Assembly: GCA_963668695.2 (NCBI GenBank)
Contig: CAXXLQ010000004.1
Location: 3,072,001-3,136,000 of the forward strand
DNA length: 64,000 bases
Direction of reading: 5' to 3'
Source of the DNA: Vicinamibacteria bacterium
GTDB lineage: Bacteria; Acidobacteriota; Vicinamibacteria; Marinacidobacterales; Marinacidobacteraceae
The notes under the pieces were generated by a model, which did no database searches, was not told where the DNA came from, and saw only the letters and a program-made list of their open reading frames with translations. Position 1 is the first letter of the stretch. Every line of letters begins with the position of its first letter. This document shows, piece by piece, positions 625-62,116 of the stretch. The translations under genes were made by a program, and so were the position numbers.

Positions 625-704
625 CAGCCGGTGGTGAAACCCAGGCGGCCCGGTTCTCCCGGTGGGGGCTCCTCCCTCACGCGCCTTGTCAGCCGGGCAG
701 GCTG
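625..704. mobile_element. Short copy of MITE family A
   Basis: Ends CAGCCGGTGG.../...CAGGCTG, flanked by CTGG (621-624) and CTAG (705-708); shares the internal CCTCCCTCACGCGCCTTGTCAGCCGG module with other copies. Confidence 0.7.
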
Positions 705-2129
705 CTAGACCGGGGGGAGTTCCTCGTGCCAGGCGGTGCGCTCTTGATAGGCATGGGCGACCTGAAGGAGGCGCGCCTCGGAGAACGGCGGTCCGTAGAT
801 CTGGAGAGCGAGCGGCCGTTTGGGGGCCTCGGCGGAGAACCCGCAACCCATCGTGAGGCCGGGGTATCCGGTCATGTTGCCGATGAAGGTGTTCCCGGGG
901 CGGGTCGTCAGTTCATCCGGATCGGTTCCGGCCCGAACATCGCTCCCGGCTGCTTCTTCGGATCGCAGACGATCGGCAGGTGAGAACGAACTGGGCACGA
1001 TCATCACGTCGCAGTTCCGGAAGACCTCGGCCATTTCCTGCTGGAGGATGGTCCGCACCCGGAGGGCCTTGATGTAGTCGGTGGCCGGGTAGAACTTGGC
1101 CACTTCCAGGCGCTCGCGCACCAGCGGGTCAAGATCCTCGGGCTGCTCGGCGAGCCGTTTTTCGTGAAACGTCGCGGCCTCCGCCATCGCAACGATCCAG
1201 CCCGCGCTCCCCGCGAGTTGGGCGTGCGGCACCTCGACCTCGACGATCTCCGCGCCATCCGCCGTCAACAGCGCGATTGCGGTGTGGACGGCCTCCTGGA
1301 CTTCTGGCGTCGCGGCATCGAAGAAACCCGACCCCGGAACTCCGATCCGGAGGCCGGACACGTCGGGAGTGAGTCCCGCGAGGTAGTCGGGCACCGGTTG
1401 GTCGGCCGCGGTGAGATCCCGAGGATCGGCGCCGGCGATCGCGCCGAGCATGGCCGCAGCGTCCCAGGCGGTCCGGGTCATCGGGCCAGCGTGGTCGAGG
1501 GTCCAACTGAGGGTGGTGACTCCGAACCGGCTGATGCGCCCGTAGGTCTGTTTGAGGCCGATGATGCCGCAGGCGGCGGCCGGACCGCGGATGGACCCCC
1601 CGGTGTCGGTGCCGATCGAGAGCGGCACGAGGCGCGCCGCGAGCGCCGCTCCCGACCCGGACGAAGATCCCGAGGGGGTGTAGTCGGTGGCCCAGGGATT
1701 CCGCGCCGGGCCGAACCCGGAGAGCACCCCACTTCCCATTGCGAACTCGAGCAGGTTGAGCTTGCCGACCAGAATGGCCCCGGCGTCATTCAATCTCGCA
1801 GTGATCGTGGACTCGTAGTCCGGGACCCAATCTGCGGTGGCCTTCGAGCCGTTCGTCGTGAGGATGCCGGCGGTCGCGAGGATGTCTTTGGGCGCGTAGG
1901 GAATTCCGTGCAGGGGTCCGCGCCAGTTGCCGGCGGCGATTTCCGCCTCGGCTTCCCGGGCTCGCTCGCGCGCGTGGTCGCCGGTCACGGTTATGAAGGC
2001 GTTGATTGCGGGCTCCGTGGCCTCGATGTGGGCGAGGTGGGCATCCACCACTTCGACGGGTGAAAGCTCCTGACGGCGGATGCGTTCCGACAGCGACTGG
2101 GCGCTGAGCTGGCAGAGTTCGGGGATCAC
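705..2129 (-). CDS. Amidase signature family protein (GatA/AtzE-like)
   Basis: GPLHGIPYAPKD, SGSSSGS and IGTDTGGSIRGPA motifs (Lys-cisSer-Ser triad); no gatB nearby. Confidence 0.9.
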   Translation of the reverse strand: MIPELCQLSAQSLSERIRRQELSPVEVVDAHLAHIEATEPAINAFITVTGDHARERAREAEAEIAAGNWRGPLHGIPYAPKDILATAGILTTNGSKATADWVPDYESTITARLNDAGAILVGKLNLLEFAMGSGVLSGFGPARNPWATDYTPSGSSSGSGAALAARLVPLSIGTDTGGSIRGPAAACGIIGLKQTYGRISRFGVTTLSWTLDHAGPMTRTAWDAAAMLGAIAGADPRDLTAADQPVPDYLAGLTPDVSGLRIGVPGSGFFDAATPEVQEAVHTAIALLTADGAEIVEVEVPHAQLAGSAGWIVAMAEAATFHEKRLAEQPEDLDPLVRERLEVAKFYPATDYIKALRVRTILQQEMAEVFRNCDVMIVPSSFSPADRLRSEEAAGSDVRAGTDPDELTTRPGNTFIGNMTGYPGLTMGCGFSAEAPKRPLALQIYGPPFSEARLLQVAHAYQERTAWHEELPPV

Positions 2130-2131
2130 TT

Positions 2132-2516: not shown

Positions 2517-2685
2517 GAGCCCGCAGTGAAATCCACGCGGCGTTCGGCCGGCGATCCATCCCGGCTGAACCGCGCCGCTCATCGTTGCGTTTCAGTCGGA
2601 ATACACCCGGTATTCCTCCCTCACGCGCCTTGTCAGCCGGGCGCCTCCCCGGCCTCGGCGCTCACGTGGGTTCCACCACAGGCTC
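2517..2685. mobile_element. MITE family A copy
   Basis: Termini GAGCCCGCAGTGAAATCC / GGTTCCACCACAGGCTC; flanks CCAG and CTAG; shared internal modules. Confidence 0.75.
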
Positions 2686-5330: not shown

Positions 5331-6428
5331 GTGAGGGGCGTCCCCGGACTCGATCCCCCGGAATACGTCGACTGGAGCGAGGATCCGGAACTCCTCCGTG
5401 AGTTCGCGGCGGTGCCCCTGAACGACTCCGCGCGCGCTCAGATCGTTCAGGATCTCGGCGAGCCGATAAGGCTCCGCCTCTACGAAGGTCTGGTCAGGAA
5501 CCGCCTCTACGACCTTCAGTTGAAGCGGTGGGTCCGTTCCGGGGTGCTCTCCAAGGCATGGCTCGGGCCTGGCGAAGAAGCCGTGACCGTGGGGGCCTGC
5601 CACGCGTTGGAGCCGGGGGACGTGGTCGGGCCGATGATCCGCAACATCGGCGCCTTTCACGAACGGGGGATGAGTCTTGCCTCCATGTTCCGGGGAGCGC
5701 TCGGAACCGGGGACGGACCGGCACGGGGCAGGGATCTCCATTTTGGAGACCTCACGCGCGGCATCGTCGCGCCGATCAGCATGGTCGGTTCGCTGCTTCC
5801 GGTCTGCGCCGGCATGGCTCTCGCATTCCGGCTCCGGGGCGAGTCACGGGTCGCGCTGACCTGGGCAGGCGACGGCACCACCGGAACCGCGGCGTTCCAC
5901 GAAGGCATGGTCTCGGCGGTCGCGCTCAAGACCCCGCTGATCGTGGTGATTCAGAACAACCGGATCGCCCTGGGCACTCCGCTGGACGATGGAGCCGACG
6001 AACGCTTCGCGCGCCTCGGGGGCGGATACGGGATTTCCACATTGCCAGTGGATGGCAACAACGTGCTGGATGTCTTCGCGGCCACCGCACTGGCCCGGAA
6101 GGAGGCCCTGAGGCATTACCGACCCGTGTTCGTGCTTGCCGACACCTTTCGGATGGGCGGACACGCAACCCACGACGAGGGAGAGAGCCGGCGAATCCTG
6201 CCCGCCGAACTATTCGATCACTACGGGCGCCGCGATCCGGTCGGCACCTATCGAGCTTTTCTGCGGAAGGGCGGGATCGGAGGCGAGCCAGTGGCCGAAT
6301 CCGTCCTGAAGGACATCGAGGCGCGAGTCGGGGCGGAAGTCGAGAGTGCCGAACGCGAGGCGTTGGCCTCGCACCGGTTTGCGCGACCCGATCCCGCTAC
6401 GGCGGGGGAAGGGGTCTTCGCCCGCTGA
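5331..6428 (+). CDS. TPP-dependent 2-oxoacid dehydrogenase E1 alpha subunit
   Basis: GEEA, GDG...NN TPP-binding motif, VDGNNV and TFRMGGHATHD; start placed at GTG 5331 because the upstream part of the ORF is MITE sequence. Confidence 0.88.
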   Translation: MRGVPGLDPPEYVDWSEDPELLREFAAVPLNDSARAQIVQDLGEPIRLRLYEGLVRNRLYDLQLKRWVRSGVLSKAWLGPGEEAVTVGACHALEPGDVVGPMIRNIGAFHERGMSLASMFRGALGTGDGPARGRDLHFGDLTRGIVAPISMVGSLLPVCAGMALAFRLRGESRVALTWAGDGTTGTAAFHEGMVSAVALKTPLIVVIQNNRIALGTPLDDGADERFARLGGGYGISTLPVDGNNVLDVFAATALARKEALRHYRPVFVLADTFRMGGHATHDEGESRRILPAELFDHYGRRDPVGTYRAFLRKGGIGGEPVAESVLKDIEARVGAEVESAEREALASHRFARPDPATAGEGVFAR

Positions 6429-6438
6429 CGACCTTTAA

Positions 6439-6585
6439 CAACCGGTGGTGAAACCCACGCGGCGTTTGCGTTTGGGTCGAAATACACCCGGTATTCCTCC
6501 CTCACGCGCCTTGTCAGCCGGGCGCCTCGCCCCCACCGGGAGAACTGGCCGGCCTCGGCACTCACGCGGGCTCCACCACAGGCTG
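6439..6585. mobile_element. MITE family A copy
   Basis: TIR CAACCGGTGGTGAAACCC / GGGCTCCACCACAGGCTG; TTAA duplicated at 6435-6438 and 6586-6589. Confidence 0.8.
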
Positions 6586-6612
6586 TTAACTTGGGGGCTT
6601 TTGCCCGCTGAC

Positions 6613-7796: not shown

Positions 7797-8300
7797 GCCG
7801 GTCTGAAGACCGGCGTTCCCAAGCCGCGCCAGCGGCTTCGGATAAGCACCGCCTCCTTCATCGGAAGTCGCGAAGGGCTGTCCTGGGTCCGGATCGTGGC
7901 TCAATCCCGATCGGAAGTCGCCCTCGCGACTTCGCATCCGCAGCCATGTCGCACCGGGGGCCCGCCCGCATATCAGGGCGCGCTTATCGGACGCCGCGCC
8001 AGCGGCTTCGGATAAGCACCGCCTCCTTCATCGGAAGTCGCGAAGGGCCGTCCTGGGTCCGGATCGTGGCTCAATCCCGATCGGAAGTCGCCCTCGCGAC
8101 TTCGCATCCGCAGCCATGTCGCACCGGGGGCCCGCCCGCATATCAGGGCGCGCTTATCGGACGCCGCGCCAGCGGTCGGACGCCGCGCCAGCGGTCTTCG
8201 GATAAGCACCGCCTCCTTCATCGGAAGTCGCGAAGGGCCGTCCTGGGTCCGGATCGTGGCTCAATCCCGATCGGAAGTCGCCTTCGCGACTTCCGATAAG
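7797..8300. repeat. REP-like hairpin followed by three tandem ~170-190 bp structured repeats (family C)
   Basis: GCCGGTC-TGAA-GACCGGC at 7797-7814; unit CGGATAAGCACCGCCTCC...GAAGTCGCGAAGG...CCYTCGCGACTTC starts near 7838, 8009 and 8198; lies between convergent genes. Confidence 0.85.
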
Positions 8301-25359: not shown

Positions 25360-25665
25360 AATCGAAACTCCCTGGCGCGCCATCGGCGCGCTGCGGCGAG
25401 TTCCGATTCGACGTTGTCAATTTGTGAAAGGGGGAGTTCCCCCTTTCACACTTTCCCCCCAATCTCGTGGGCAGCGAACAGAGTTCGCTGCCGTCAGTTT
25501 TTGTTGCTTGCTTGGCCGGACATCACCTTAGGGTGGGGCGCTGGAAGATAAGGACGGAACAACGACCAAGGGGACGGAGCGGTACGCCCCGCCCCAGGAC
25601 CGGCCGGCGCTCCGCGCCGGGAAGGGAACGCCGGCCAGTCCTCCCGGTGGAGCCTTCAGACCGGC
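25360..25665. repeat. Family B repeat (5'-truncated at the IS end) followed by a REP/micro-insert hybrid
   Basis: Aligns to the 261-bp unit including the TGTGAAAGGGG/CCCCTTTCACA hairpin; 25624-25665 is a REP hairpin interrupted by CCAGTCCTCCCGGTGGAG. Confidence 0.85.
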
Positions 25666-32430: not shown

Positions 32431-32462
32431 ACCGGAGAGGTTTTGCAAGGAGACGCTGCTAG

Positions 32463-32987
32463 CAGCCGGTGGTGGAACCCGGGTGAGCGCCGCCGGCCAG
32501 TTCTCCCGGTGGGGGCGAGGCCCAGTTCTCCCGGTGGGGCCAGTCCTCCCGGTGGGGGCCCGGCTGACAAGGCGCGTGAGGGAGGAGCCCCCACCGGGAG
32601 AACTGGCCCGGGTGTATTCCGACTGAAACGCAACGATGAGCGGCGCGAAGCGACGCGGGAACAGCCGGTGGTGGAACCCGGGTGAGCGCCGAGGCCGGCC
32701 CCCCCGGGAGGAACTGCCAGCGGCTGACGTGAGGGAGGAGCCCCCACCGGGAGAACTGGGCCGTTCTCCGACGTGGGTTTCATCACCGGTTGTTTGGCCG
32801 GGATGGATCGCCGGCCGAACGCCGCCTGGGTTTCATCACCGGTTGTTTGGCCGGGATGGATCGCGGGCCGAGCCCCCACCGGGAGAACTGGGCCGCGCGG
32901 GTTCCATTACAGGCTGTTTGGCCGGGATGGATCGCCGGGCGAGCCCCCACCGGGAGAACTGGGCCGCCTGGGTTTCACCACCGGCTG
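32463..32987. mobile_element. Expanded composite MITE family A copy
   Basis: TIR CAGCCGGTGGTGGAACCC / GGGTTTCACCACCGGCTG; CTAG duplicated at 32459-32462 and 32988-32991; internal module duplications. Confidence 0.82.
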
Positions 32988-46517: not shown

Positions 46518-46541
46518 GCCGGTCTGAAGACCGGCGTTCCC
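46518..46541. repeat. REP-like hairpin
   Basis: GCCGGTC-TGAA-GACCGGCGTTCCC, identical to 7797-7820. Confidence 0.75.
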
Positions 46542-48150: not shown

Positions 48151-48267
48151 GGGGTTTCGACGGGGACTCTCTCGTACCTTGTCTGAGCGCTCGCGTGACC
48201 TCGTCCCGGCGGCCGGCGCCGGAGCGCCATCCCGGAGGAACCGGGCGAACCTTTACCCTAGCAGTTC

Positions 48268-51200: not shown

Positions 51201-52230
51201 GCTGCACGGTCCCCTGCTCCTGGCCGTTCCGCTGCCTGCCGACGAGGCCGCCCGCCTGGAGGGTGTCCGCGCAATCCAGAGAACCCTGTTGATGGGGAGC
51301 GGCTCGCTCGCCCTGATCTTCGCGATCGTGGTGCCCGGCCTGCTGGCACGCCGTCTGGCCGCTCCGGTCCGCGCTCTCGCGCATGCCACGGGGCAGATCG
51401 CTGACGGCGACCTGGAGGCGCGGGTACCACTGCACGGGACCCTGACGGAGCTGAGGCTGCTCGCGGCGAGCGTGGAACGACTGGTTCGACGTATTCCGGA
51501 TGTCCGGAAACAAATGCGCGAGGAGGCGGCCGCCGACCTCGCCCGACGGGTGGCGCACGACATCAAGAACGCCCTCGCGCCGATTGGACTGGCGGCGGAC
51601 TACATTCGCCGGGTGCTGCGCGATCCGCGAGGCCGGGATCCACAGCAGGCGGTCGACGAGAGCGTCTCCGAAATTCTCGGCCAGGTGGAACGCCTCCGGC
51701 GGATTTCATCGGAGTTTTCCGCGCTGGGAGCACCTCTCCGGCTGGAGACCGCTGACGTGACGAAACTGGTCCGCGACACGATGGCCCCGTATCTCCGCTC
51801 GCACGCCGGACCTCGGATCTCTTTCTCGGGGACGCCGACTCCAGTGGCGCGCGTCGATCCTGAGATCGTGGCGCGGATCGTTGAAAACCTCATGCAGAAC
51901 GCGCTGGAGGCCACGCAGGACTCTCCGAACCTGGGGGACGAGGAGGCGGAAGTCTCCGTCAGAGTGTTCCCGGTCGAGCGTGAAACGCGGATCCGGATTG
52001 AAGTCGAGGACAACGGCCCGGGTGTCCGGACCGATCTTCGCGAACGGATTTTCGATGCCGCGTTCTCGACCAGGACGCGTGGATCGGGACTCGGACTCGC
52101 GAACGCCCGTCGTTTCGCTGAGGCCCACGGCGGAAGAGTCAGCGCCGGCCCGCGCGCGGACGACCGCTCGGGACTGTTGCTCGTTGTGGAACTGCCGGTG
52201 GACGGGCCGCGGGATAGGGAACAGGTTTGA
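48268..52230 (+). CDS. Large multi-TM sensor histidine kinase (NtrY-like C-terminus)
   Basis: Many TM segments, HAMP, ARRVAHDIKNAL.PI H-box, NL..NA, EDNGPG, FSTR..GSGLGL. Confidence 0.88.
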   Translation: MNRVPRMRRLPPLVVAVGAFLFFAAALYDVAHRFGMLPSAVHATLTVGSGLVLLVVLIRRDLLPPDGRWIVAALSGAALVALCCRIPLSRTITAGPESASRAADRVDAFLADLTREVGDAAYLVARTAPVGAALEGSDAGDREAEAFRALAGWALPDTMIGQGGATLYDRQLRPVAWSGGNPDFEDALAEAFPEGVRAENCPDPAFPLFVFSEGGRRSYLAAAECTRNLLGVVTVEIPIREASPPSSGAAPVSALEAAAGRGLETQFLDGAEDLQALAQLFERRGDRFLDGAADSERYYFALRAYDGQLLGAASTSVAPIAARRAERETEAALFATLALLGGALIALPCLWRFGGLGALAAIWTLRFSLSELLATLPAQPGGPLSATLAGPPLLPLLADSPVMAVVTAAALFLSARIVGARLRPGSARNPTSGPLSVARGLGAGATAVAAAALVRNAGFSGGAPLTPTWAVDTGWPEVLGWTALLLSLAALLLVLQSLVRPSGLVLLTAAAVVTGSVAFLPEGSFLFAGLPLAAAAGLSLSRRGRVSLRHLRQPLLSHEPGFAFVVAFLLFAVPSVLLYPAMVWHEDNVRQRYALDAAPVQTLRHRFAVCHALEEATRTLDNQASALVRLRPDTAYRLWLVTGLPRLTVASALEVRGPAGQRSRFGVGLPRRPDPSSSAPSPARWNPIPGCQLASGSDAVLETERQFPSGLSVTLRVADRASEIPFLPRAAGIADHFLLRGDAAPAVFYGRDLRLRRRRPGAQQERPANRAELDILVHGEPFVISWRRTGAGDHAAALLGWGFLAALVALLIAVTSRVRILFPGRGGRFRRRSFQMQLTETLAAAVLVAILGVAVFAQQRLETLLQSASDREAISRSFSVERVAHELAALDPLVPPEELASRLAQAADQLDTDAALYNGGELVAVSRPELAQTGLLPPRPPPAAVLPTAESADPFLSIQEAGSLRYRIVWIRLDTPARLHGPLLLAVPLPADEAARLEGVRAIQRTLLMGSGSLALIFAIVVPGLLARRLAAPVRALAHATGQIADGDLEARVPLHGTLTELRLLAASVERLVRRIPDVRKQMREEAAADLARRVAHDIKNALAPIGLAADYIRRVLRDPRGRDPQQAVDESVSEILGQVERLRRISSEFSALGAPLRLETADVTKLVRDTMAPYLRSHAGPRISFSGTPTPVARVDPEIVARIVENLMQNALEATQDSPNLGDEEAEVSVRVFPVERETRIRIEVEDNGPGVRTDLRERIFDAAFSTRTRGSGLGLANARRFAEAHGGRVSAGPRADDRSGLLLVVELPVDGPRDREQV

Positions 52231-52718
52231 GGGTCATCCCGAGTTCAGCCCGCGCGCTCTGGCTCGCTCGAGCGCTGTCCGGAGCGATCCTGGCGTTTGC
52301 GCTCTGCGCTCCGGCACCGCCGCCGGATGATCTCGAGGAGGTACTGGGGCGTTTCCGGCGGGCATTCGAAGAGGCGGACGCGGGCCACCTGGAGGGCCTC
52401 TATCCGTCAGGTTGGGCCCTCGTGGCGTTCGCCGGGGAAACCCGCCGCAGTATCACCGGCGACGAATTGCGACGCGGGCTGGAGCGGCTCTTCCGGACCC
52501 GGACGCCGATCAGCTACCAGGAGCGGCCGCGTTCCATTCGCCGCTCGGCGGACGGCGGGTATGTCCTGTTCGTACCCGAATGGACCAGCATGACCACCGG
52601 GACCGACCGACATGTGGTCGAGGCGCTGCGAATCGGAATCGAACGGGCACCCGTCACGCGAAACGAAGACTCGGCTCACCGCTGGGTGATCCGCGAATTC
52701 ACCGCCTGGACACGGTAG
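52227..52718 (+). CDS. Secreted NTF2-like fold hypothetical protein
   Basis: Signal peptide; F..AFE..D...L..LY...W pattern; start overlaps the kinase stop. Confidence 0.55.
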   Translation: MRVIPSSARALWLARALSGAILAFALCAPAPPPDDLEEVLGRFRRAFEEADAGHLEGLYPSGWALVAFAGETRRSITGDELRRGLERLFRTRTPISYQERPRSIRRSADGGYVLFVPEWTSMTTGTDRHVVEALRIGIERAPVTRNEDSAHRWVIREFTAWTR

Positions 52719-52778
52719 CCGGCCCCACACCAGACGGCCGGAGACGCCGTGCTCCGGCCGACCCCCAGTCTTGCCCAG

Positions 52779-53594
52779 TCAGCGGCCGTCCGCCCGTCCT
52801 TCGCCGATCTGCGGAGACGCAGGCCCGCCCATCGCTACGGGATCCGGATCTGCGGAGCTGGTGGAAGTCGAGCGAACGAGCCGCTTGCCGAGCCTCCGCA
52901 AACCACGCAGCAGCGGTGAGGCCGCGTAGCCGGTGGCGAGGACCAGGAACATCGCCACCGGCTCCGCAATCGTCGCGACGATGAAGATCGCCAACACGAC
53001 CAGCATCCGATGGGACTGCGGCCTCCGCCCGGTCTGGCTCTTGAAGCTCGGATAGCGCACCGGGCTGCTCATCAGGAGTGCGAGCCCGAGCATTCCGAAA
53101 AGACAGGCGGCCGCCGCCACGGAGTTATCGGGAGGCGCCGGATGCCAGTAGGTCACTGCGGCTACCAAGGCGGCCGCCGCCGGCGACGACATCCCGGTGT
53201 AGTAGCGGGGATCGGCACTCAACCGCCCCACGTTGAAACGCGCGAGGCGGACAGCCGCACAGATCGTGAACAGCGCCGCAACCAGCCAGCCGGTCTGGGG
53301 CCAGCGATGCAGAACCCAGGCGTACGCCAGGACCGCAGGCGCCACGCCGAAGGAGACCATGTCCGCCAACGAGTCCAGTTCGCGGCCAAAATCGCTGGTG
53401 GCGCCGGCGAACCGCGCCACCCGGCCGTCCACCAGATCCGCAAGGATGGCGAAGCCGATGATGAGCCCGGCACTGCCGAAGTCCCCGCGAAGACTCTGGA
53501 CAATGGAGAAGAACCCCAAGAAGATGTTGGCCACCGTGAACACGGCCGGGAGCAGGAACACCCCCCTGCGCGTCCGGAGGCGCTGGCGTTTCAT
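52779..53594 (-). CDS. pssA: CDP-diacylglycerol-serine O-phosphatidyltransferase
   Basis: LP..FT.AN, D.VDG.VAR, FG.ELDSLADMVSFGVAPA and RLARFN motifs. Confidence 0.93.
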   Translation of the reverse strand: MKRQRLRTRRGVFLLPAVFTVANIFLGFFSIVQSLRGDFGSAGLIIGFAILADLVDGRVARFAGATSDFGRELDSLADMVSFGVAPAVLAYAWVLHRWPQTGWLVAALFTICAAVRLARFNVGRLSADPRYYTGMSSPAAAALVAAVTYWHPAPPDNSVAAAACLFGMLGLALLMSSPVRYPSFKSQTGRRPQSHRMLVVLAIFIVATIAEPVAMFLVLATGYAASPLLRGLRRLGKRLVRSTSTSSADPDPVAMGGPASPQIGEGRADGR

Positions 53595-54235
53595 TCCCAC
53601 TGTCCGATGACGCTGACTCCGCCGCGCACCCGGTCTCCCGGACGTACCGTGAGCCGGGCGCCGGCAGGTAGTAGAAGATCGGTCCGTGACCCGAAACGGA
53701 TGAGCCCGAAGCGTTCACCCATCCCCAGGCGGTCCCCAACGCGCACGCGGCAAACGATGCGCCGGGCGACAACACCGGCGATCTGGCGAACCCGGACCGT
53801 GCCCCGCTCGGTCGTCATCTCCAATTCGTTCCGTTCGTTCCGTTCGGCCGCGTCTTTCCGGAACGCCGCCTTGAACGCCCCTTCACGGTAGCGCACCGCG
53901 AGCACCCGGCCCGCCGTCGGAGCGCGGTTGATGTGCACGTCGAAGATCGAGAGAAAAATGCTCACCCGCTGCGTCTCCGCGTCTCCCTCTTCAGCCCGGC
54001 CCACCTCGGTGACCCTGCCGTCGGCAGGAGCGAGGATTGCATGGGCGTCATTCGGGGTACGCCTCTCCGGATCCCGGAAGAAAAAGGCGCAGAAACCGGC
54101 GCCAGCCAACAACACCCAGCCGGCCCACGAAAGGACGTCGACGCCGGCTACGCGAGCCGCAGCGAACAAGGCGACGGCGACGGCGAGCGGGGCCACCACG
54201 AAGACCCGGCCCTCCGGAGCGATCGGCAGTCTCAC
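53591..54235 (-). CDS. psd: Phosphatidylserine decarboxylase proenzyme
   Basis: FFRDPER, APADG, SIFLSIFDVH.NR.P, QIAG..ARRI and FGSR cleavage motif. Confidence 0.94.
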   Translation of the reverse strand: MRLPIAPEGRVFVVAPLAVAVALFAAARVAGVDVLSWAGWVLLAGAGFCAFFFRDPERRTPNDAHAILAPADGRVTEVGRAEEGDAETQRVSIFLSIFDVHINRAPTAGRVLAVRYREGAFKAAFRKDAAERNERNELEMTTERGTVRVRQIAGVVARRIVCRVRVGDRLGMGERFGLIRFGSRTDLLLPAGARLTVRPGDRVRGGVSVIGQWE

Positions 54236-54275
54236 GCGCCTATCGGGCAGTCTGCCGCAGAGAGAGTCGGCTCAA

Positions 54276-54507
54276 CAGTCTGTGGTGGAACTCGCGTGAG
54301 CGCCGAGAGCGGGGAGGCGCCCGGCTGACAAGGCGCGCGAGGGAGGAGCCCCCACCGGGAGAACTGGCCCGAGTGTATTTCGACCGAAGCGCAACGCAGA
54401 GTGCCGCAAAGCGCCAGTTCTCCCGGTGGGGGGCGGTTCAGCCGGGATGCATCGCCGCTCGAGCCCCCACCGGGAGAACTGGGCCGCGTGAGTTTCACCA
54501 CCGGCTG
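54276..54507. mobile_element. MITE family A copy (inverted)
   Basis: TIR CAGTCTGTGGTGGAACTC / GAGTTTCACCACCGGCTG; flanks TCAA and TTAG. Confidence 0.78.
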
Positions 54508-54518
54508 TTAGCAGCCGC

Positions 54519-54764
54519 TCAAGAGGACGTCGCAAGCGCGGCAATCTGGTCCTTCAGGGCCAGTTTGCGCTTCTTCATCACCGCCGCCTCGTGCTGCTGG
54601 CGGGGCGAGAGGTGCCCGTCCTTCGTCAGTTCTTGCAGCCGTTCGTCGAGTTCCCGGTGTCGCCGGATCAATTCCTCGAGATCGGGCATTTCCGCGGATG
54701 GGGCCATCGGGCCTGCGCCGGCCGCCGCGACGGTGTCGGTTTCGATCTGGTCTTCTTGGTTCAT
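54519..54764 (-). CDS. DUF465/YdcH-like coiled-coil protein
   Basis: GGAGG RBS; L...HRELDERL.....MKKRKLALKDQI. Confidence 0.85.
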   Translation of the reverse strand: MNQEDQIETDTVAAAGAGPMAPSAEMPDLEELIRRHRELDERLQELTKDGHLSPRQQHEAAVMKKRKLALKDQIAALATSS

Positions 54765-54836
54765 GAATGCCTCCAGAATTCCGAAGCCGTTCCGCATCGG
54801 AAGCCGCTTCGGGAAAACACGGCAGTTAGTCCGTAA

Positions 54837-55070
54837 CAGCCTGTGGACAAAGTGACGTGAGCGCTGAGGCCGGTGAGGCCCAGTTCTCCGGGGGGGCCAG
54901 TCCTCCCGGGGTGGGGGCTCGGCTGACACGAAGCGCGAGGGAGGGACCCCACCGGGAGAACTGGCCTTGGTGAATTTCGACCGAAGCGCGGCGATGAGCG
55001 ACGCAAAGCGGATTGGTGTCAGCCGGGAGGTATCGCCGGCCAAACACCGGATGACTTCGTCCACAGGCTG
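54837..55070. mobile_element. MITE family A copy (inverted)
   Basis: TIR CAGCCTGTGGAC / GTCCACAGGCTG; flanks GTAA and CTAA. Confidence 0.78.
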
Positions 55071-55793
55071 CTAAAGGGTATCGGAATGGTTGGCCAGGCC
55101 ATGGATGTCAGGATCTCGAAGATAGAGCGGTTCCAGCGTGAACTCTCCGCGTCGCGCCGCTTCGAGCCCCAACCGAAGCGCGGCCGGCGCCAAGGCTCGC
55201 TGCTCAGCCACTACCTCTACGTCCGAAGCTCCCTCCGCGATGATCTCCCGGTAGCGGGCGACAGCCGGCCCGCAAATGCGCCGCACGCGGTGCTTCGCAG
55301 CCCACCGCACGGTGTCTTGCGGCAATAGCCGGAAGGGGCCCTGCACCAGACCCTCCGGGCCGATTCCGTCGTATATGGCGGCAAACAACTCACCCCGCAG
55401 GGCATCCACGACCGCCAGCCGGCGCAGTGATGCGCCGTTCGTAGCCGCGTCGGCGTACGCCGCCGCGTCCAGACTCGAGACGCCGACAGCCCGAATCCCC
55501 GCCGCCAGAGCGAACCCCTGTGCGGTAGCAAGGCCGATCCGGAGACCCGTGAACGAGCCGGGGCCTCGCGTCGCAACCAGCATCGCGAGCTCGCCGTTTT
55601 CCAGCTTCGCCTGCTCCAGGGCCTCACGGATCGCGGGGAGCAAACTGCGAGAGTGCCGATTCGAAGGTTCGAAGGTCTGAACAACCTCTCCGGCCACGGC
55701 TGACCCGACATCTACGAACCCAAGGGCGACGCTGCCGAGCGTGCCGGTCGTATCGAGGGCCAGCACCGGGCCGGAGATCTGCTCTCCGCGCAC
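55071..55793 (-). CDS. tsaB: tRNA threonylcarbamoyladenosine biosynthesis protein TsaB
   Basis: LALDT, HS..LLP.I, GPGSFTGLRIG, DA.RGE and EPLYLR; start uncertain (GTG 55793). Confidence 0.92.
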   Translation of the reverse strand: MRGEQISGPVLALDTTGTLGSVALGFVDVGSAVAGEVVQTFEPSNRHSRSLLPAIREALEQAKLENGELAMLVATRGPGSFTGLRIGLATAQGFALAAGIRAVGVSSLDAAAYADAATNGASLRRLAVVDALRGELFAAIYDGIGPEGLVQGPFRLLPQDTVRWAAKHRVRRICGPAVARYREIIAEGASDVEVVAEQRALAPAALRLGLEAARRGEFTLEPLYLRDPDIHGLANHSDTL

Positions 55794-55867
55794 GCGCTTG
55801 GGTTCCGACTCTCGCAAGGCTCCGGCAATCCTACTTCCGGCGCTTGCCGGAGGGCCACGTTCCCGGG

Positions 55868-56195
55868 TGGCGGGTTTACGTTGGCCCGGGAGGGTGTTTC
55901 GCCGTCCCCGCCCAGGTCCACGCAACAAGCGTAGACAAAAGCGTGCGTCTCGCGGCCTACGGCCGTGATGCTTCCCAATGGCGGGTTTGCGTTGGCCCGA
56001 GAGGGTGCTTCGCCGTCCCCGCCCGGGTCCACGCAATAGGCGTAGAGAAAAGCGTGCGTCTCGCGGCCTGCGGCCGCGATGCTTCCCCAATGGCGGGTTT
56101 GCCATTGGCCCGGGAGGGTGCTTCGCCGTCCCCGCCCGGGTCCACGCGATAAGCGTAGGCAAAAGTGTGAGCTTCGCGGCCTACGCCCGCGATGC
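55868..56195. repeat. Three tandem ~111-bp repeats (family D)
   Basis: Units TGGCGGGTTT...GGGTCCACGCRA.AAGCGTAG...GCGGCCT start at 55868, 55979 and 56091. Confidence 0.9.
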
Positions 56196-56223
56196 TGGCC
56201 AGTTCTCCCGGTGGGGGCCTGCA

Positions 56224-58412
56224 CCCGACTTCGCCAAAACGTGACGTTCGGTTTCCGTAAGTCGCAGACAATACGGCCATTACAAAACAGGGTGCCAGCA
56301 GACTGGCACTACGTTTGTGTGTTTGGGTCCGGCCTTCGGCGGGTGCGCCGGCGGTAGTGGTGGGGCTCGACGCCCACCGCCCGCGCGATCTGGGCCACCT
56401 GCGCCGGGGGGCGGACATCCTGCCGATTCACGATCAGCCGTCCGTTCGTCTCCCGGATCGTGGTGGTCATCCGCACCCACGGCCGTAGCCGGGTGCGGAT
56501 CGAGTCCCACGACAGGGGGATGGCGCGCGCCTTCAGCCGGGTGCGGATCAGGTGCACCGCGTGATAGGCGAGCACCGCCAGGAAGAGGTGCGCCGCGATC
56601 CGGCGGTGCTTCACATGCCAGATCGGCCGCAGCCCCAGCTCCGTCTTGAGCGACCGGAACGTCGCCTCGATCTCCGTCAGCCGCCAGTAGGTCCGCACGA
56701 TCTGCTCTGTGCCCCAGCCCGTCTGGCTTGACCGCAGCAGATACGAACCCGCCCCCGCGTCCCGCGCCCCATAGCGCTTCGTCCGGCTCCACACCACCGC
56801 CGTCGCGTTGGGTCCCGCACCCTTCTCCACCTCCACCTCATACTGCGCCGACACCTGCCGATACCGCTCCCGGAGCCGGCCCACCGTGTCCATCACCTTC
56901 TCATACTGCTTCCGGCGGTGCGGGATCGTCAGCCCCTCGTGGAGGTGCCGCAGCGCCGTCTCATACTGCTCCCGGTGCCGCCCCAGCATCGCCTCCTCGG
57001 TGGCCCGCTTCCCCTCGCTCACCGCAACCAGCCGCACCTCCCCCTCGTCCTCCTCCAGCCTCCACGCCAAAACCTCCTGCTGCGCGCTCGTCGTCAATGT
57101 GACGTCCGCCTCCCCCTCCGGCGGCGCCGGCCGCGTCTCCCGACTCACGCAGATCCAGCCGTAGCCCCGCTCCCGAAGCCAGGCGATGTTCTCCTCCGTC
57201 GCGATCCCCGCGTCCAGGATCACCGTCGGCTTCTTCCCACCGTGCCCGCCCCCGGCATCCACCTCCGCCTCGAACCGCCCCAACGCCGCCGCCAGCGTCG
57301 CCGGCTCCGACACGTCTCCCGCCAGAACCTCGCAACCCCGCGGGAACCCCGCCCCATCCAGCGCCAGCGCCAGCGTCACCAGCGGGTGCTTCCGCCCCTC
57401 CTTCGAGCGCCCGAACCGCAACAGCTCCTTGTCCGAACGCCCCGTATACCAAGTGTTCGTCAGATCGTAGAAAACATCGTGTCCGGCAACTCCAACAGCT
57501 TCCGCTCCCGGCGGAACAGCCCCGCCTGCAACTCCCGCCGCAGCCGCCACAACACATCCCCCGTCCGGTAGAGCTTCTGGAGCGACAGCGCCTTCCCCCG
57601 ATCCAGGTCCAAAAGCTCCAGCGCCGCGCTGTCCTCCCGCAACCAGCGCAACGCCTCCCGTTCGCTGCTCGGATGCAGCATCTTCGCCACCACCAGCGCG
57701 GTGGCGATCCGCGCATCCCGGCCCCGCACCCCCTGCGCGTGCAGCAAGTCCCGAAAGCCCAGCTCCGCAAGCCCCGCCAGGCAGACGCGCTCCCCGCCTG
57801 CCGAACGGGAGTCCTCATGCTCCAGACTGTCGAGGTCCACCGTGGCCACCGCACCATCCCGGCCCGGCGTCTCCGCCCGCGGCGGCGCCAGCCCCTGGGT
57901 GCGCAGCCGGCGCACCAGGTCCTCGGCCGCCGCCTCGATGTCCGGGGGCACCGCCAACATCGGCCGTTGGCCCGCCAGCAGCACCTCGGTCACCAGAACC
58001 ACATCCCGCCACTGCTCCTTCGGAACCGGATAGTCCACGCCCAGGTTCAACAGAGACTCCTGGCGGACCTTGTCGCCGATTCGCACCGAGCGGGACAAGC
58101 GATAACTGTGCGCGGGTTCGCCGTGCTTGGTGTGGGTCTTGGTGGCGCGGATGTACACGGCGGGGCGGCGAGAGAGGCTGGGAGGGATGCCGGCGGATGG
58201 CAGAGCCAAAGTCAAGGCCTGAAACGCCATTTACAAAAGAACCTGGCACTACACGCCTCTCCCCCTCCTCCAAACCGCCGTCCGCCCACCGAGAGCCCGT
58301 TTTTGGCCCGTTTCGGACCTCCAATGGCCACTCTGGGCCCACTTTGGAGGCCGATTCGAACTTCCCTCAGCTCTGCATGCCGGCCCGACCCTCTAAAAGT
58401 GGCGAAGTCGGG
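56224..58412 (-). mobile_element. IS1634-family insertion sequence
   Basis: TIR CCCGACTTCGCCA (56224-56236) / TGGCGAAGTCGGG (58400-58412); flanks TGCA and TTCA. Confidence 0.85.
56309..58158 (-). pseudogene. IS1634-family DDE transposase with a 1-nt frameshift near 57475
   Basis: N-part YIR...YRL..SVR.G.KVRQ..LLNLG; C-part FYDLTNTW, FGRSKE, ILDAGI, Y..LTEIEATFRSLK.ELGLRP.WH; frames switch at ...LPDT/VFYD. Confidence 0.88.
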
Positions 58413-58478
58413 TTCAGACCGGCGCTCCTTAGTCGCCAGAGGTCCGCGTTCCCGTGCAGGCGGCGCATAGCTGACCGG

Positions 58479-58650
58479 GCCAAAGAAATGGCGGCGAACC
58501 GGAGGTTCGGCGTCTGCGTGACCGGGGGGAAAGTGTGAAAGGGGGGCTCGCCCCCCTTTCACAATCAGTAATGACCAATCGGAACTTGCCGCAGCCCGCC
58601 GGAGGCGGGCAAGGAAGTTTCGATTGCCGGCGCGAAGCGCCGGGCGGTTC
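58479..58650 (-). repeat. Diverged inverted copy of repeat family B
   Basis: GGAAAGTGTGAAAGGGGGG...CCCCCCTTTCACA hairpin and GCCGGCAATCGAAAC (minus strand) match family B. Confidence 0.75.
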
Positions 58651-58746
58651 CCGGACGGGGCCCGAACCCAATCAAGACCACGGTGCAAACCGGCCACACC
58701 TCTGGCCCCGTCCGGGAACCGCTCGACCCTGAGAGACAATCGCGGC

Positions 58747-61500
58747 GTGACGACGGCCCCGCGGCTCTTCCCGGATGTCCAACTGGCGCCCGCCGGGCCT
58801 CCCGGCCGCCCGCCCCGCCCACCGGGAAAAGGACGCGGCACCTCGCCGGTGATGCAGCAATATTCGGAGCTGAAGCGGGAGGCCGGGGACGCCATCCTGT
58901 TCTTCCGGATGGGCGACTTCTACGAGATGTTCTTCGAGGACGCCAAGCGGGCCGGCGAGTTGCTGGGCATCGCAGTCACGTCGCGGCAGAACGATGCCGA
59001 CGGGAAGGCGATTCCCATGGCGGGCGTCCCGTACCACGCCGCCGAGGGATACATCGCGCGCCTGGTGCGGGCCGGTCTCCGGGTCGCGGTCTGCGAACAG
59101 GTGGAACCTCCCGGTCTCTCCAAGGGGCCGGTGCGCCGGGAGATCGTGCGGGTCGCGACCCCATCGACCTATCTCGATCCGGCCTATCTTGCGGGATCCG
59201 AAGCCGCCTACCTGATGGCCGTGGCCGAGGCCGGAACGCGGACGCAGCCCCGCCTCGGAGCGGCGTGGGTGGATCTTTCCACGGGGGATTTCACCGCTGC
59301 CGAATTCTCCTCGGCTAGCCGCCTGACGGAATGCGCCGAAGCCATGGCCGGTTTCCGTCCGCGGGAACTGTTGGTCGCGGAGGGATCGCCACCGAAGGAC
59401 CTGCTTCCGGTGCTGGGAGATCTGCCTCTGTTGACGGTGCGCCCTGAGCTCTGGTTCCAGTTCGAACATGCCCGTGACACGTTACGCCGCCACTTCGGAA
59501 CCCTTTCGCTCGAATCTTTCGGCGTCGAGGGAATGCCCTCCGCCATCTGCGCGGCGGGGGCCGCGATCAGCTACCTGACGGAGACTCAACGCGGTGGGCT
59601 CCACCACCTCGGCAGCCTCAAGCGTCTGGACACGTCGGGGCGCATGCAGATCGACCACCTCACCCAGCGAAATCTGGAGTTGTTCCGGTCGCTCTCCGTA
59701 GACATGGGAACCCCGTCCGGCGCAACCCTCGTCGAGATCCTCGACAGGACCGCCACCGCGATGGGGGCCCGCTTGCTGCGGCGGCGTCTGGCTCACCCCC
59801 TGCTGGATCCTCCGCGAATCCGCGGGCGGCATCTCGCGGTGGAGGCGGTCACCCGCGACCGGAACCTCCGGCGGGAGATCACCGGCGGACTTCGAGGCTG
59901 CCCCGACCTCGAGCGACTCGCTTCGAGGGTGGCGCTTCGGATCGCGGGCCCCCGGGAATACCTCAGGCTCGCGGACGGGCTGCGTGCGGCGTCGGCGATC
60001 CGCGCCACTCTCCGAGCAGCCCATGCGGAGCCTCTTCAGGAGGTCGCCGAACGCATCCTGGAATTGCCCGCAGTACTTCGGCGCATCGAGGAAACGATCG
60101 CACCCGAAGCGCCGGTCCTCGCCCGTGAAGGCGGCGTGATTCGGGAAGGTTTCTCCCCGCAAATCGACGAGCTCCGGCGTCTCCGCTTCCACGGCCGTGA
60201 GTGCATCCGCAACATGGAGACGAACGAGAAGCAGCGCACCGGGATCACGTCGCTGCGTATCCGCCACAACCAGGTCTTCGGTTACACGATCGAGGTCCCC
60301 AAGGGTCAAACGGGCCGGGTTCCCCAGGATTACGTTCGCCGGCAGACCCTGGTGGGGGCGGAGCGCTACGTCACGGAGGAGTTGAAGGAGTTCGAGGCAC
60401 GGGTGGCGCGCGCCGACGAGGAGATCCGCGAGTTGGAGGGTGAACTGTTCCGTAGTCTCGAGGACGAAGTCGGCGACGCCGCACGCGAAATCCTGGCAAC
60501 CGCCGGCGCGATCGCCGAGGCGGATGTTGCCGCCGGACTTGCCCAAACGGCGATTACGCATCGTTACGTGAAGCCGGAGGTTCACGACGGATTCGAGATC
60601 GAAGTGCGCGGCGGAAGGCACCCCGTGGTCGAGGCACTGTCCGGCGAGGAGTTCGTGCCCAACGACCTCAGTCTCGGCGACTCCCGCTTCCTGATGATCC
60701 TCACCGGCCCCAACATGGGAGGCAAGTCCACCTTCCTGCGCCAGACCGCGCTGCACGCCGTGATGTCCCAGATGGGCTCGTTCGTCCCGGCGGAGTCGGC
60801 GCGGCTGCCGGTGGTGGATCGTGTCTTCGCCCGCGTTGGAGCATCCGACGACCTCTCCCGCGGACGGTCCACGTTCCTCACGGAAATGGAGGAAACCGCG
60901 CACATCCTCCATCACGCGACGAGTCGAAGCCTCGTCTTGCTTGACGAAGTGGGTCGGGGAACCGCGACCTACGACGGCCTGTCGCTTGCCTGGGCCATCG
61001 TCGAGCACATCGCGCGCGATCCGGGATTGCGCATGAAGACGCTCTTCGCAACCCACTACCACGAGTTGACCGCGCTGGCGAGCGCCGAAGACGGCGTCGT
61101 CAACTTCCATGTCGAAGCGCGGGAACATCGGAATGAAATCGTGTTTCTGCGCCGCGTCGCGCCTGGAGGGACCAACCGAAGCTACGGCATCCAGGTGGCA
61201 CGGCTGGCGGGGGTACCGCGGGCAGTGGTGCGTCGGGCTCATGAGGTTCTTGAGGGGCTCACCGGCGGACTCGACGGACGCGGAGCCCGTCTGCCCGCGC
61301 CCGAACCAGGGGGCCCCTACTCCCTGCTGGAACCCGCCGAAAACCAGGTGGCCGAGGCATTGAGGGCATGCGATCCCGACAGTCTCAGCCCTCGGGACGC
61401 GCTCGAACTCCTCTACCGACTACGGCGGCAACTCGATCCGGCCGGATTTGGAGCAAGCGGGCGCTCCACTTCGAACCCGGTGGAGGAAGAGGAATCCTGA
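58747..61500 (+). CDS. mutS: DNA mismatch repair protein MutS
   Basis: SPVMQQY, FFRMGDFYEMF, PMAGVP, TGPNMGGKST, STFLTEM and LDEVGRGT motifs; start uncertain. Confidence 0.96.
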   Translation: MTTAPRLFPDVQLAPAGPPGRPPRPPGKGRGTSPVMQQYSELKREAGDAILFFRMGDFYEMFFEDAKRAGELLGIAVTSRQNDADGKAIPMAGVPYHAAEGYIARLVRAGLRVAVCEQVEPPGLSKGPVRREIVRVATPSTYLDPAYLAGSEAAYLMAVAEAGTRTQPRLGAAWVDLSTGDFTAAEFSSASRLTECAEAMAGFRPRELLVAEGSPPKDLLPVLGDLPLLTVRPELWFQFEHARDTLRRHFGTLSLESFGVEGMPSAICAAGAAISYLTETQRGGLHHLGSLKRLDTSGRMQIDHLTQRNLELFRSLSVDMGTPSGATLVEILDRTATAMGARLLRRRLAHPLLDPPRIRGRHLAVEAVTRDRNLRREITGGLRGCPDLERLASRVALRIAGPREYLRLADGLRAASAIRATLRAAHAEPLQEVAERILELPAVLRRIEETIAPEAPVLAREGGVIREGFSPQIDELRRLRFHGRECIRNMETNEKQRTGITSLRIRHNQVFGYTIEVPKGQTGRVPQDYVRRQTLVGAERYVTEELKEFEARVARADEEIRELEGELFRSLEDEVGDAAREILATAGAIAEADVAAGLAQTAITHRYVKPEVHDGFEIEVRGGRHPVVEALSGEEFVPNDLSLGDSRFLMILTGPNMGGKSTFLRQTALHAVMSQMGSFVPAESARLPVVDRVFARVGASDDLSRGRSTFLTEMEETAHILHHATSRSLVLLDEVGRGTATYDGLSLAWAIVEHIARDPGLRMKTLFATHYHELTALASAEDGVVNFHVEAREHRNEIVFLRRVAPGGTNRSYGIQVARLAGVPRAVVRRAHEVLEGLTGGLDGRGARLPAPEPGGPYSLLEPAENQVAEALRACDPDSLSPRDALELLYRLRRQLDPAGFGASGRSTSNPVEEEES

Positions 61501-61563
61501 CCGCTGCCCATCGTCCGGCCGCCCGCGAAGCCCCAGGCGCAGCCATACACTCCCGCCAGTTAA

Positions 61564-62116
61564 CTGCCTGTGGACAAAGTCATGTGGCCCAGTTCTCCCG
61601 GTGCGGGCCTCGGTGCCCACCCCACTTCATCCACAGGCAGTTAACAGCCCGTGGTGAAACCCAGGCGGCGTTCGGCCGGCGATCCATCCCGGCCAAACAA
61701 CCGGTGATGAAACCCAGGCGGCGTTCGGCCGGCGATCCATCCCGGCTGAACCGCGTCGCTTCGCGCCGCTCATCGTTGCGTTTCGGTCGAAATACACCCG
61801 GGCCAGTTCTCCCGGTGGGGGCTCCTCCCTCACGCGCCTTGTCAGCCGGACCCCCACCGGGAGAACTGGGCCTCGCCCCCACCGGGAGGACTGGCCAACC
61901 TCGGCACTCACCCGGGTTCCAACACAGGCTGTTCACCGCGTCGCTGCGCGCCGCTCATCGTTGCGTTTCGGTCGAAATACACTCGGGCCAGTTCTCCCGG
62001 TGGGGGCTCCTCCCTCACGCGCCTTGTCAGCCGGACCCCCACCGGGAGAACTGGGCCTCGCCCCCACCGGGAGGACTGGCCAACCTCGGCGCTCACCCGG
62101 GTTCCAACACAGGCTG
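61564..62116. mobile_element. Two adjacent MITE family A copies (61564-61640 and 61645-62116)
   Basis: TTAA at 61560-61563, 61641-61644 and 62117-62120; TIRs CTGCCTGTGGA/TCCACAGGCAG and CAGCCCGTG/CACAGGCTG; second copy has an ~185-bp internal duplication. Confidence 0.83.

Follow-up and report, generated by a model that had tools for sequence, protein, structure and literature searches.

A very small, mobile-cassette-like unit in the repeats and genes of a sponge-symbiont acidobacterium

We describe here a unit of about 20 nucleotides (nt) that is scattered through the genome of a Vicinamibacteria bacterium, an uncultured sponge-symbiont member of the Acidobacteriota. The stretch from which the work started, called the window below, is 64,000 nt long and corresponds to positions 3072001-3136000 of contig C4 of the source genome (G000; assembly of 4.10 Mb in four contigs, 67.5% G+C). 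A sequence-only reading of the window had noticed the unit as a micro-insert lying inside other repeats. It enters DNA whole and in either orientation, with a net gain of 18 nt (19 nt in some repetitive extragenic palindromic sequences, or REPs) and without target-site duplication. The unit resembles the smallest mobile DNA elements described, and we lean, if not strongly, toward the explanation that it is a very small nonautonomous mobile cassette that works like the small dispersed repeats (SDRs) of cyanobacteria, beside which it would be a second, independent and much richer case.

The unit and the repeats that carry it

The core of the unit is the 18-mer CCAGTTCTCCCGGTGGGG, and its usual inserted form is the 20- to 21-mer [G/C]CCAGTTCTCCCGGTGGGGGC. 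The count of about twenty window copies in both orientations given by the sequence-only reading is borne out, since a 22-mer version has 22 matches on the two strands at three or fewer mismatches where shuffled sequences give an expectation of 0.01; two more copies, both decayed, come up at 54880 and 54897 when the search uses the 18-mer core. Genome-wide, G000 has 1,631 copies of the core at two or fewer mismatches, 829 forward and 802 reverse. The boundaries are sharp, with information near 2 bits over positions 0-17 and a fall to background level within about 3 nt outside on both sides. The favored flanking bases are G or C at -1, G at -2 (1,502 of 1,630 copies) and at -3 (1,175), and G-C at +18/+19, and by this tally the unit is a 21- to 23-nt box, [GG][G/C]CCAGTTCTCCCGGTGGGGGC. 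The earlier remark that insertions sit next to CCGG thus holds as far as the G-rich left flank is concerned, and does not extend to sites such as AGGC-GCC, AAGCG-GC and GATCC-AT (here and below, hyphens mark the joints), which have no CCGG. Fragments are rare, as the left-half 10-mer CCAGTTCTCC occurs 1,302 times inside complete units and 19 times elsewhere. The unit is nonpalindromic and has no inverted ends, it folds weakly on its own (about -5 kcal/mol) with no covariation between its end positions, and at its position 5 the T and the C variant are each found again at numerous sites and in numerous species.

Merging of neighboring copies gives 1,396 arrays, of which 1,213 are single, 134 double, 47 triple and two longer, and the spacings inside arrays are 18 nt (151 times, mostly at one site of the main host repeat) or 25 nt (84 times), with no others. 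Because 87% of the arrays are single, the unit is not a minisatellite. Nor is it the end of a resident insertion sequence (IS), which we ruled out because the spacing of inverted pairs has no peak between 300 and 4,000 nt; no full-length element bounded by units was found in that range. A phage vector was rejected as well, with one exact match only in a viral contig collection.

The great majority of copies lie within two kinds of repeat. By rule-based classes, which are approximations, 1,579 copies outside contig C1 (left out because it duplicates part of C4) divide into ~1,307 (~83%) at sites in a miniature inverted-repeat transposable element (MITE), ~175 (~11%) in REP hairpins and 97 others. 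The MITE copies occupy four or five fixed sites of one hairpin element of ~240 nt, which has terminal inverted repeats and is flanked by CTAG or TTAA; from the target sites familiar for the IS5 family, we take it to be the MITE of an IS5-type element. A complete example in the window (54274-54515) is missing at the orthologous sites of the sister species G001 and of G004, the two genomes closest to G000, and is predicted to fold as a single long hairpin in which its S1 and S4 units pair (-77.8 kcal/mol, z = -6.19). The REP copies fall in at least three subfamilies. These hosts are true REPs, and REP-a is found as GGGAGCGCCGGTCTTCAGACCGGCACC arrays in opposite orientations on either side of a gene for a Y1 transposase (IS200 type, or REP-associated tyrosine transposase, RAYT) in G010, G008 and G014.

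Filled and empty copies of the same site define the junctions. The empty S1 site CGG-TAT-TCC reads CGG-GCCAG..GGGGC-TCC when filled, S2 changes from CGGC-GT-TCGG to CGGC-CCAG..GGGGC-TCGG, S6 from AGGC-GCC to AGGC-CCAG..GGGG-GCC, and the REP from CCGG-T-CTTCAG to CCGG-CCAG..GGGGC-CTTCAG. A cassette of 18-21 nt replaces 0-3 nt at these MITE and REP junctions (0-4 target bases across all sites), and each insertion lengthens the site by 18 nt, or by 19 in S3 and in many REPs. The junctions show no target-site duplication, and loss of 1-4 bases is common. Targets are G/C-rich and are usually the center or tip of a short palindrome or hairpin; they include REP stems, arms of the MITE hairpin, the CCCGG-TGGGG middle of the unit itself and CCCGCGCGGG in an efflux gene (below). 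Among the insertions into palindromes are CCCG-CG-CGGG in that gene, GGC-GCC and GCCGG-C in the MITE, and the REP stems, and some sites are nonpalindromic.

The filled/empty pairs cited in the sequence-only reading are all present as it quoted them: AATACACCCGG-TAT-TCCTCCC (~2600) with its filled form (~61791), GGGCGCCTC-C-CCGGCCTCGG (~2640) with GGGCGCCTC-GCCCCCACCGGGAGAACTGG-CCGGCCTCGG (6520-6560), and the REP GGGAACGCCGG-T-CTTCAGACCGGC (reverse of 7797-7820) with the filled REP at 25624-25665. Its triple run is also real (Table 1). Across the genome, clustering of the flanks (20 nt per side) sorts the copies into 108 contexts, 73 of them with a single member; an empty paralog with exactly the same flanks exists for 28 of the 108, and an empty paralog exists for 1,069 of the 1,631 copies. 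The distances between the 12-mer pairs that flank units peak at 7 (empty), 25 (filled) and 43, with weaker peaks near 60-61, 78-79 and 96, and a second series runs 14, 32, 50, so that both proceed in steps of 18.

Sites S1 and S6 are 27 nt apart, and in 619 MITE copies they are empty/empty in 212, filled/empty in 161, filled/filled in 148 and empty/filled in 77. The presence of all four combinations indicates that the state of the cassette changes as a discrete unit over a very short distance. We make no use of a four-gamete argument from single-nucleotide polymorphisms in the S1 flanks, since the nearby variable C-to-T bases in CCGG/CGCG may recur.

Entry at new sites and turnover between species

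In-frame copies within coding sequences, which the sequence-only reading had thought worth looking for, do occur. At C4:394432 (with a duplicate on C1) the unit stands in frame in a single-copy RND efflux gene, which has 18 additional nt and the protein sequence GGEP-GPHRENW-RDAA. The insertion is present in G000 and G001, whereas 14 of the 14 other congeners have GAGCCCG-CG-CGGGAT or variants of it without the 18 nt; the target is the palindrome CCCGCGCGGG mentioned above. In mfd the unit is found in G012 only, where the protein reads LGG-PPPGEL-VRP as against LGEP-RP in G000, G001 and G004. The mfd segment is 12-24 nt shorter in every one of the 13 comparable congeners, whose matches are close to full length (from query residue 1-5 through 176, a definition that places G015, matched from residue 34 at a contig end, and G002, with no match, outside the count), and it is exactly 18 nt shorter in G007, the nearest relative of G012 (93% amino-acid identity). 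A further unit lies in a loop of coaBC in G010 that is too variable for a clean empty allele. Coding copies were judged by a frame test for each unit, and the four rows that pass it in G000 are two for the efflux gene and two REPs upstream of genes.

The unit is also found within itself. The nested form TTCTCCCG[GCCAG..GGGGC]GGGG, in which 21 nt replace three, occurs 64 times in G018, which belongs to another genus, and is absent from G000, G001, G004, G008 and G016. Finally, at a GCCGGC-centered site in orthologous MITEs, G000 is empty, G001 is filled in reverse orientation and G004 in forward orientation.

The description of a discrete, nonpalindromic unit that spreads independently across repeat families therefore stands, with entry into several MITE sites, into REPs of three subfamilies or more, into two or three genes distributed over three species, and into the unit itself. 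These independent contexts exclude descent of all copies from a single ancestral MITE position. More generally, one might suppose that a small number of old indels, perhaps only one, arose in a master MITE or REP, were amplified along with their hosts and were shuffled by recombination and slippage, and that the unit never inserts by itself. In keeping with such passive spread, ~94% of copies are limited to a few fixed positions within the REPs and a single MITE, the junctions at each site are identical, a T5C tandem pair has been inherited as a block, and chimeric joints at units indicate recombination. We consider it scarcely tenable nonetheless, as it is already contradicted by the in-frame copies in single-copy genes, absent in congeners, and by the nesting of unit within unit; opposite orientations at one orthologous site and units in unrelated REP subfamilies with unique flanks speak against it as well.

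Turnover at sites in use is rapid. Our cross-species alignments cover 1.28 Mb of G001 and 0.88 Mb of G004, and that of G001 with G000 has 180 nonredundant blocks with 804,838 columns and 93.9% identity. Within these blocks there are 123 units in G000 and 90 in G001, with 61 shared, 62 in G000 only and 29 in G001 only. The differences form 30 indel clusters, most of them with net lengths that are multiples of 18 (+18, -18, +36, -36, -54). In the window, for example, the G001 ortholog of the MITE at 32460-32640, which bears the triple run, has the first unit of that run only, a clean 36-nt difference at AGGC-GCC. No recurring cassette is found among the 45 other gap pieces of at least 14 nt, except a 53-nt module of the MITE. 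With G004 as a third genome, 12 of 25 loci are recoverable. Two are filled in G000 and G004 and empty in G001, which points to loss or allele replacement, and one REP unit has the same two mutations in G000 and G004 and so is old. The flanks differ by 5% or less in 28 of 79 polymorphic units. Paralogous flanks at MITE sites differ by 11-26% on average, and an identical-flank paralog exists for a quarter to half of the copies. In situ change and gene conversion both appear to contribute.

Several observations weigh against a mobile cassette of the SDR kind. The target rule is loose, with no consensus beyond left G-richness and nearby palindromes. At each MITE site all filled copies share one junction (for example, TAT replaced by G-unit-GC), for which copying between paralogs accounts no less well than repeated targeted insertion. 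G000 has only the efflux gene as a convincing coding copy, so true new-site events are presumably rare. One MITE differs by +90, with five units in G000 where G001 is empty, most simply through a single replacement event. The flanks of polymorphic units have 0.20 mismatches per column compared with 0.09 for shared units (medians 0.148 and 0.034), as would fit conversion or rearrangement for many events, although fragmented gap placement inflates the figure. Last, no moving enzyme was found, as G000 is without a Y1 transposase, an RVT_1 domain, or a TnpB above the cut-off. We nevertheless favor the mobile cassette, in a form that allows for these points: rare true insertions would create new sites, most of the ~1,600 copies would have arisen by hitch-hiking as the host IS5-like MITE and the REPs multiplied, and the fast presence/absence turnover at used sites would be due in part to short-patch exchange between paralogous or allelic repeat copies.

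The unit is confined to one coherent lineage. The 18-mer is found in 15 of 15 congeners, at 8 to 776 copies each, and in four further genera of the family, whereas none of 12 genomes from two other, neighboring families of the same order has it. Its numbers per genome include 1,566 in G000, 776 in G004, 259 in G018, 70 in G031 and 17 in G037. An exact-match scan of one genome per species gave nearly only metagenome-assembled genomes (MAGs) named Vicinamibacteria, 'Candidatus Marinacidobacterium' or Acidobacteria bacterium; the strays are single matches in two actinobacteria and one short contig labeled gammaproteobacterial. The latter, a 6.1-kb contig, has two units in REP contexts typical of the acidobacterial lineage and is probably mis-binned rather than a case of horizontal transfer.

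Possible mechanisms and known systems

The activity that we favor for the rare insertions is a sequence-specific cut-and-replace reaction, acting in trans and performed by a putative enzyme; we rank such a dedicated trans-acting activity as more probable than untargeted repair. In its most specific form, an enzyme dedicated to the unit would recognize the 20-base cassette and put it in place of 0-4 bases at the center of a GC-rich palindrome or hairpin tip, with no duplication, inverted ends or reverse transcriptase (RT). We regard this version as speculative and unlikely as it stands. If it were true, the reaction would be a transposition chemistry outside the known DDE, HUH, serine, tyrosine and target-primed classes, acting in uncultured sponge-symbiont Acidobacteriota, and it might be convergent or identical with whatever moves the SDRs.

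Untargeted templated repair could give a similar outcome with no dedicated enzyme and no recognition of the unit. A broken or stalled 3' end in ...GG at a GC palindrome or hairpin would now and then switch to a unit as template, copy it and return, or Ku/LigD would capture a stem duplex, and the ~1,600 copies, many of them in perfect inverted pairs, would provide the templates. This would account for targets at palindrome centers and hairpin tips with 0-4 target bases lost, for both orientations at one site, for the G at -2 in the left flanks noted above, which is like a primer microhomology, and for the recurrence of the T and C variants at position 5, as if copies template copies; G000 has Ku, and no transposase or RT candidate was found there. 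On the other hand, switching should vary in length and carry donor flank, whereas the boundaries are near-invariant, with the 19 stray left halves against 1,302 complete ones. No other G000 repeat behaves alike among the 45 other gap pieces, and exact conservation of the 18-mer in five genera suggests recognition of the sequence. We judge such repair somewhat unlikely as the main source of insertions.

Searches for enzymes gave few candidates. The proposal of the sequence-only reading that an RT adds the unit is not upheld, since searches for RVT_1 gave no match in G000. In a sample of 20 genomes of the family, the 13 that bear units are likewise without a match, and the weak RVT_1 matches are in two unit-free genomes only. 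TnpB in G000 is limited to one sub-threshold match. An origin by an IS110 bridge-type system was set aside, as the single IS110 gene in G000, at C4:482399, has no more than two units ~400-500 nt upstream. As to the alternative proposal of HUH-mediated addition, the REP-associated Y1 (HUH) transposase is the only enzyme candidate that we can name, and it is a weak one. It might move the unit as single-stranded DNA on cutting REP-like hairpins, in which case genomes without the gene would hold fossils. The gene is present in nine of the 20 sampled genomes, all nine unit-bearing (and, in a separate search, in G001, with two copies, and in G009), and of the 11 without it six are free of units and a seventh gives a single match. 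The sampled genomes are related, so this association does not amount to a statistical test and is confounded by phylogeny. The Y1 genes of G010, G008 and G014 are flanked by REP-a, the host REP, and not by bare units; in G014 the REP beside the gene is filled. Low-copy genomes hold most of their units in REPs, and HUH transposition of the IS200/IS605 type makes no target duplication. It is, however, not known to remove target bases, and the unit is not a hairpin. The gene is absent from G000, G004, G018, G031 and G037 despite the copy numbers given above, and lineage-specific units are more numerous in G000 (62) than in G001 (29), with its two gene copies. Units show no leading/lagging strand bias (287/296 versus 385/371). 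Movement by Y1 thus seems to us improbable.

The Y1 loci have some features of their own. At G010:C1:749001-754500 and at the loci in G008 and G014, REP doublets form long tandem arrays with a period of 80-85 nt, oppositely oriented upstream and downstream, and G008 and G014 each have a truncated second Y1 copy. Two segments of G000, C4:2162866-2163619 and 2177420-2178537, match the left flanks of both G001 RAYT loci and contain no RAYT sequence; judging from these flanks, G000 seems to have lost the RAYT gene once the two lineages had separated.

One may also ask if the unit is a functional site, for instance a protein-binding or DNA-uptake-type signal that is spread by selection or biased recombination, with insertion secondary. 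The 18-mer is exact across genera whose proteins differ by ~20%, copies occur in every 100-kb bin of the genome, and the density of one array per ~3 kb with frequent inverted pairs is like that of uptake sequences. Yet the unit arises by insertion and not by point mutation, it is nearly excluded from coding DNA (one gene in G000) and concentrated in one MITE, and 8 to 1,566 copies among congeners would be odd for a required site. We consider this very improbable.

The closest known counterparts to the unit that we favor as a mobile cassette are the SDRs, and the earlier statement that no element of this kind has been described needs correction in that respect. SDR1-8 of the Nostocaceae, the subject of work by Elhai and colleagues in 2008, are reportedly 21-27 nt long and found in minitransposons and in themselves; SDR4-6 are said to share a stem-loop with compensatory changes, and movement through an RNA intermediate was reportedly proposed. 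The unit is like the SDRs in its size class, sharp ends and many copies, in being embedded in minitransposons and further repeats that exist both filled and empty, and in nesting within itself (as SDRs are said to do), although in our case nesting is seen in G018 and not in G000. PMC4390886 describes the insertion of SDR5 as precise, between bases 3 and 4 of the palindrome GCGATCGC (HIP1), and PMC5861425 states that SDR-like repeats were not found outside the Nostocaceae; the SDR work of Elhai et al. (2008; Genome Res 18:1484) is also cited by Bertels and Rainey (2011; PMC3116915). Precise insertion into a short palindrome and confinement to one coherent lineage are common to SDRs and the unit. 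The two differ in that the unit is unrelated in sequence and in a different phylum, overwrites 1-4 target bases, occurs in frame in conserved genes, and has documented presence/absence at orthologous sites between species. The covarying stem-loop that is said to characterize SDR4-6 has no equivalent in the unit, and an RNA intermediate in the SDR manner is without support here, as no RT was found.

Other systems share single properties with the unit. REPs and REPINs with their RAYTs (Bertels and Rainey 2011; PMC3116915) are likewise short and intergenic with hundreds to thousands of copies. REP-a is a textbook case, with the Y1 gene between inverted REP arrays and the unit inside those REPs, but the unit interrupts REP stems, is most numerous in a genome that lacks the transposase and, being nonpalindromic, cannot itself be counted as a REP. 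Mosaic intergenic elements are represented by the bacterial interspersed mosaic elements (BIMEs) of E. coli, the neisserial intergenic mosaic elements (NIMEs) with their 20-bp dRS3 repeats and the pneumococcal BOX elements. These have short modules in variable number and order, bounding repeats of ~20 bp and recombination at modules, as at window position 648 (below), and such modules are not known to insert alone into unique DNA, coding genes or themselves. The palindromic elements of Rickettsia are similarly tolerated in frame in conserved protein genes, but are 100-150 bp long and palindromic, as against the 18-21 nt of the nonpalindromic unit. The main host is an IS5-type MITE by its terminal inverted repeats, its absence at orthologous sites and its CTAG/TTAA flanks, and a DDE_Tnp_1 insertion sequence is present in the window; the unit, however, is far too short for two transposase-binding ends, and it is not a MITE because it has neither inverted ends nor duplication.

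Elements so small are almost undocumented, and the SDRs are the one described precedent, with no relatives known outside the Nostocaceae. The present system combines ~1,600 copies with a series of complete genomes that differ by degrees, clean orthologous alleles in the empty and the filled state, in-frame gene insertions, self-nesting and a candidate HUH enzyme that only some of the genomes possess, and these assets make the question of the smallest mobile DNA testable by comparative genomics and oligonucleotide biochemistry. In practical terms, the unit alters the lengths of MITE and REP hairpins, adds six residues to proteins and breaks short-read assemblies, and it is a sensitive strain marker for these sponge symbionts.

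Copies in the window and minor observations

The units, empty sites and host elements of the window are listed in Table 1. The block 61645-62108, with the last two MITE copies, is missing from G001 and G004. At the other end of the window, G000 has at 648-700 a terminal repeat, a unit, module C and the end of a terminal repeat, and the G001 ortholog has the terminal repeat, a unit, AGGA, an inverted unit and the rest of the MITE; on comparison of the two sequences, the difference is a rearrangement whose breakpoint coincides exactly with the unit. No Rfam family was found at gathering thresholds over the whole window.

Table 1. Units, empty sites and host elements in the window (S1-S6, sites of the host MITE; strand "." where none applies)
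Feature	Position	Strand	Remarks
Unit, variant CCCGG...	648..669	+	Chimeric joint: S2 left flank with S1 right flank
Empty S1 site CACCCGG-TAT-TCCTCCC, unfilled MITE fragment	2598..2618	+	Genome-wide, empties CGGTATT and filled CGG-GCCAG..GGGGC-T
Empty S3/S6 region GGGCGCCTCCCCGGCCTCGG	2636..2660	+	Same MITE fragment as 2598..2618
Unit at MITE S3	6529..6550	-	S1 and S2 of this copy empty; whole element 6426-6596 absent in G001
Empty REP-a hairpin GGGAACGCCGGTCTTCAGACCGGC	7797..7820	-	
Unit (T5C variant, 3' end decayed) within REP-a hairpin	25633..25654	+	
Three units at MITE S3 and S6 (S6 doubled)	32495..32559	+	Spacings 25 and 18 nt
Unit at S1 of the MITE of 32495..32559	32587..32608	-	Inverted pair with the S6 units; present in G001
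Unit in rearranged MITE module	32740..32761	-	S1-type right flank
Unit at S2, tandem T-A module	32872..32893	-	
Unit at S2, terminal T-A module	32943..32964	-	
Complete host MITE	54274..54515	.	Terminal inverted repeats CAG(C/T)C(T/G)GTGGTG(G/A)AAC
Units of the complete MITE	S1 54348-54369; S4 54412-54433; S2 54463-54484	-; +; -	
Two decayed tandem units at S6 of second MITE	54880..54914	+	
Unit at S1 of second MITE (that of 54880..54914)	54945..54966	-	
Unit in lower arm of REP-a hairpin	56197..56218	+	DDE_Tnp_1 IS breaks the REP loop right after
Unit in short MITE relative, ends CTGTGGACAAAGTCA...TTCATCCACAGGC	61587..61608	+	Same filled state in G001
MITE copy with three units	61801..61896	.	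S1 61801-61822 (+), S6 61850-61871 (-), S3 61875-61896 (-)
Partial MITE with the same three units	61986..62081	.	61986-62007 (+), 62035-62056 (-), 62060-62081 (-); adjoins the 61801..61896 copy

Contig C1 of G000 (144 kb) has several unit loci whose 35-nt flanks on each side are identical to those of loci in C4:311,000-396,000, in inverted order (for example, C1:39964 = C4:394435). From these matches C1 would seem to be another copy of that region, or another haplotype, which agrees with the contamination figure of 9.3%. The sequencing runs that contain window DNA are sponge metagenomes or coded organisms, and contigs from four runs over window positions 44001-64000 break at each MITE edge, so that they are silent on 18-nt heterogeneity. 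A full-text literature search on the organism (Vicinamibacteria/sponge, Marinacidobacterium) gave nothing about its repeats.

A second family of micro-inserts was considered and rejected. Near 555,900 of G001:C17 (ortholog at ~615,200 of G000 C4), a 21-nt insert, CCTTGCATTCTCATGGAGAGT, splits a unit within a REP in G001 only, and a related string follows a truncated unit at C1:136845 and C4:311989 of G000; the insert has 3 genomic matches only, and the 45 other gap pieces hold no recurring cassette. A cousin motif, ACCCGATCATG-N-GGGTTTCTCCCGGTGGGG, has the right two-thirds of the unit in common with it and occurs in G000 in 18 copies at one or fewer mismatches, among them C4 positions 716881, 1461602, 1462146, 2158046 and 2520600.

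The left-end module of the MITE (terminal repeat and GGCCGGCGATCCATCCCGGC hairpin) is tandemly repeated at 61640-61760 and 32770-32960 of the window, with a period of 53 nt without the unit and 71 nt with it, and at one locus a 53-nt module is an indel between G000 and G001. Finally, an insertion sequence with a DDE_Tnp_1 transposase (open reading frame 56309-57550, minus strand) extends from 56216 to ~58440 in the window, immediately behind a unit and within a REP-a hairpin loop. It has at least 10 copies in G001, at ~93% identity, and its position indicates that REPs also serve as targets of insertion sequences.

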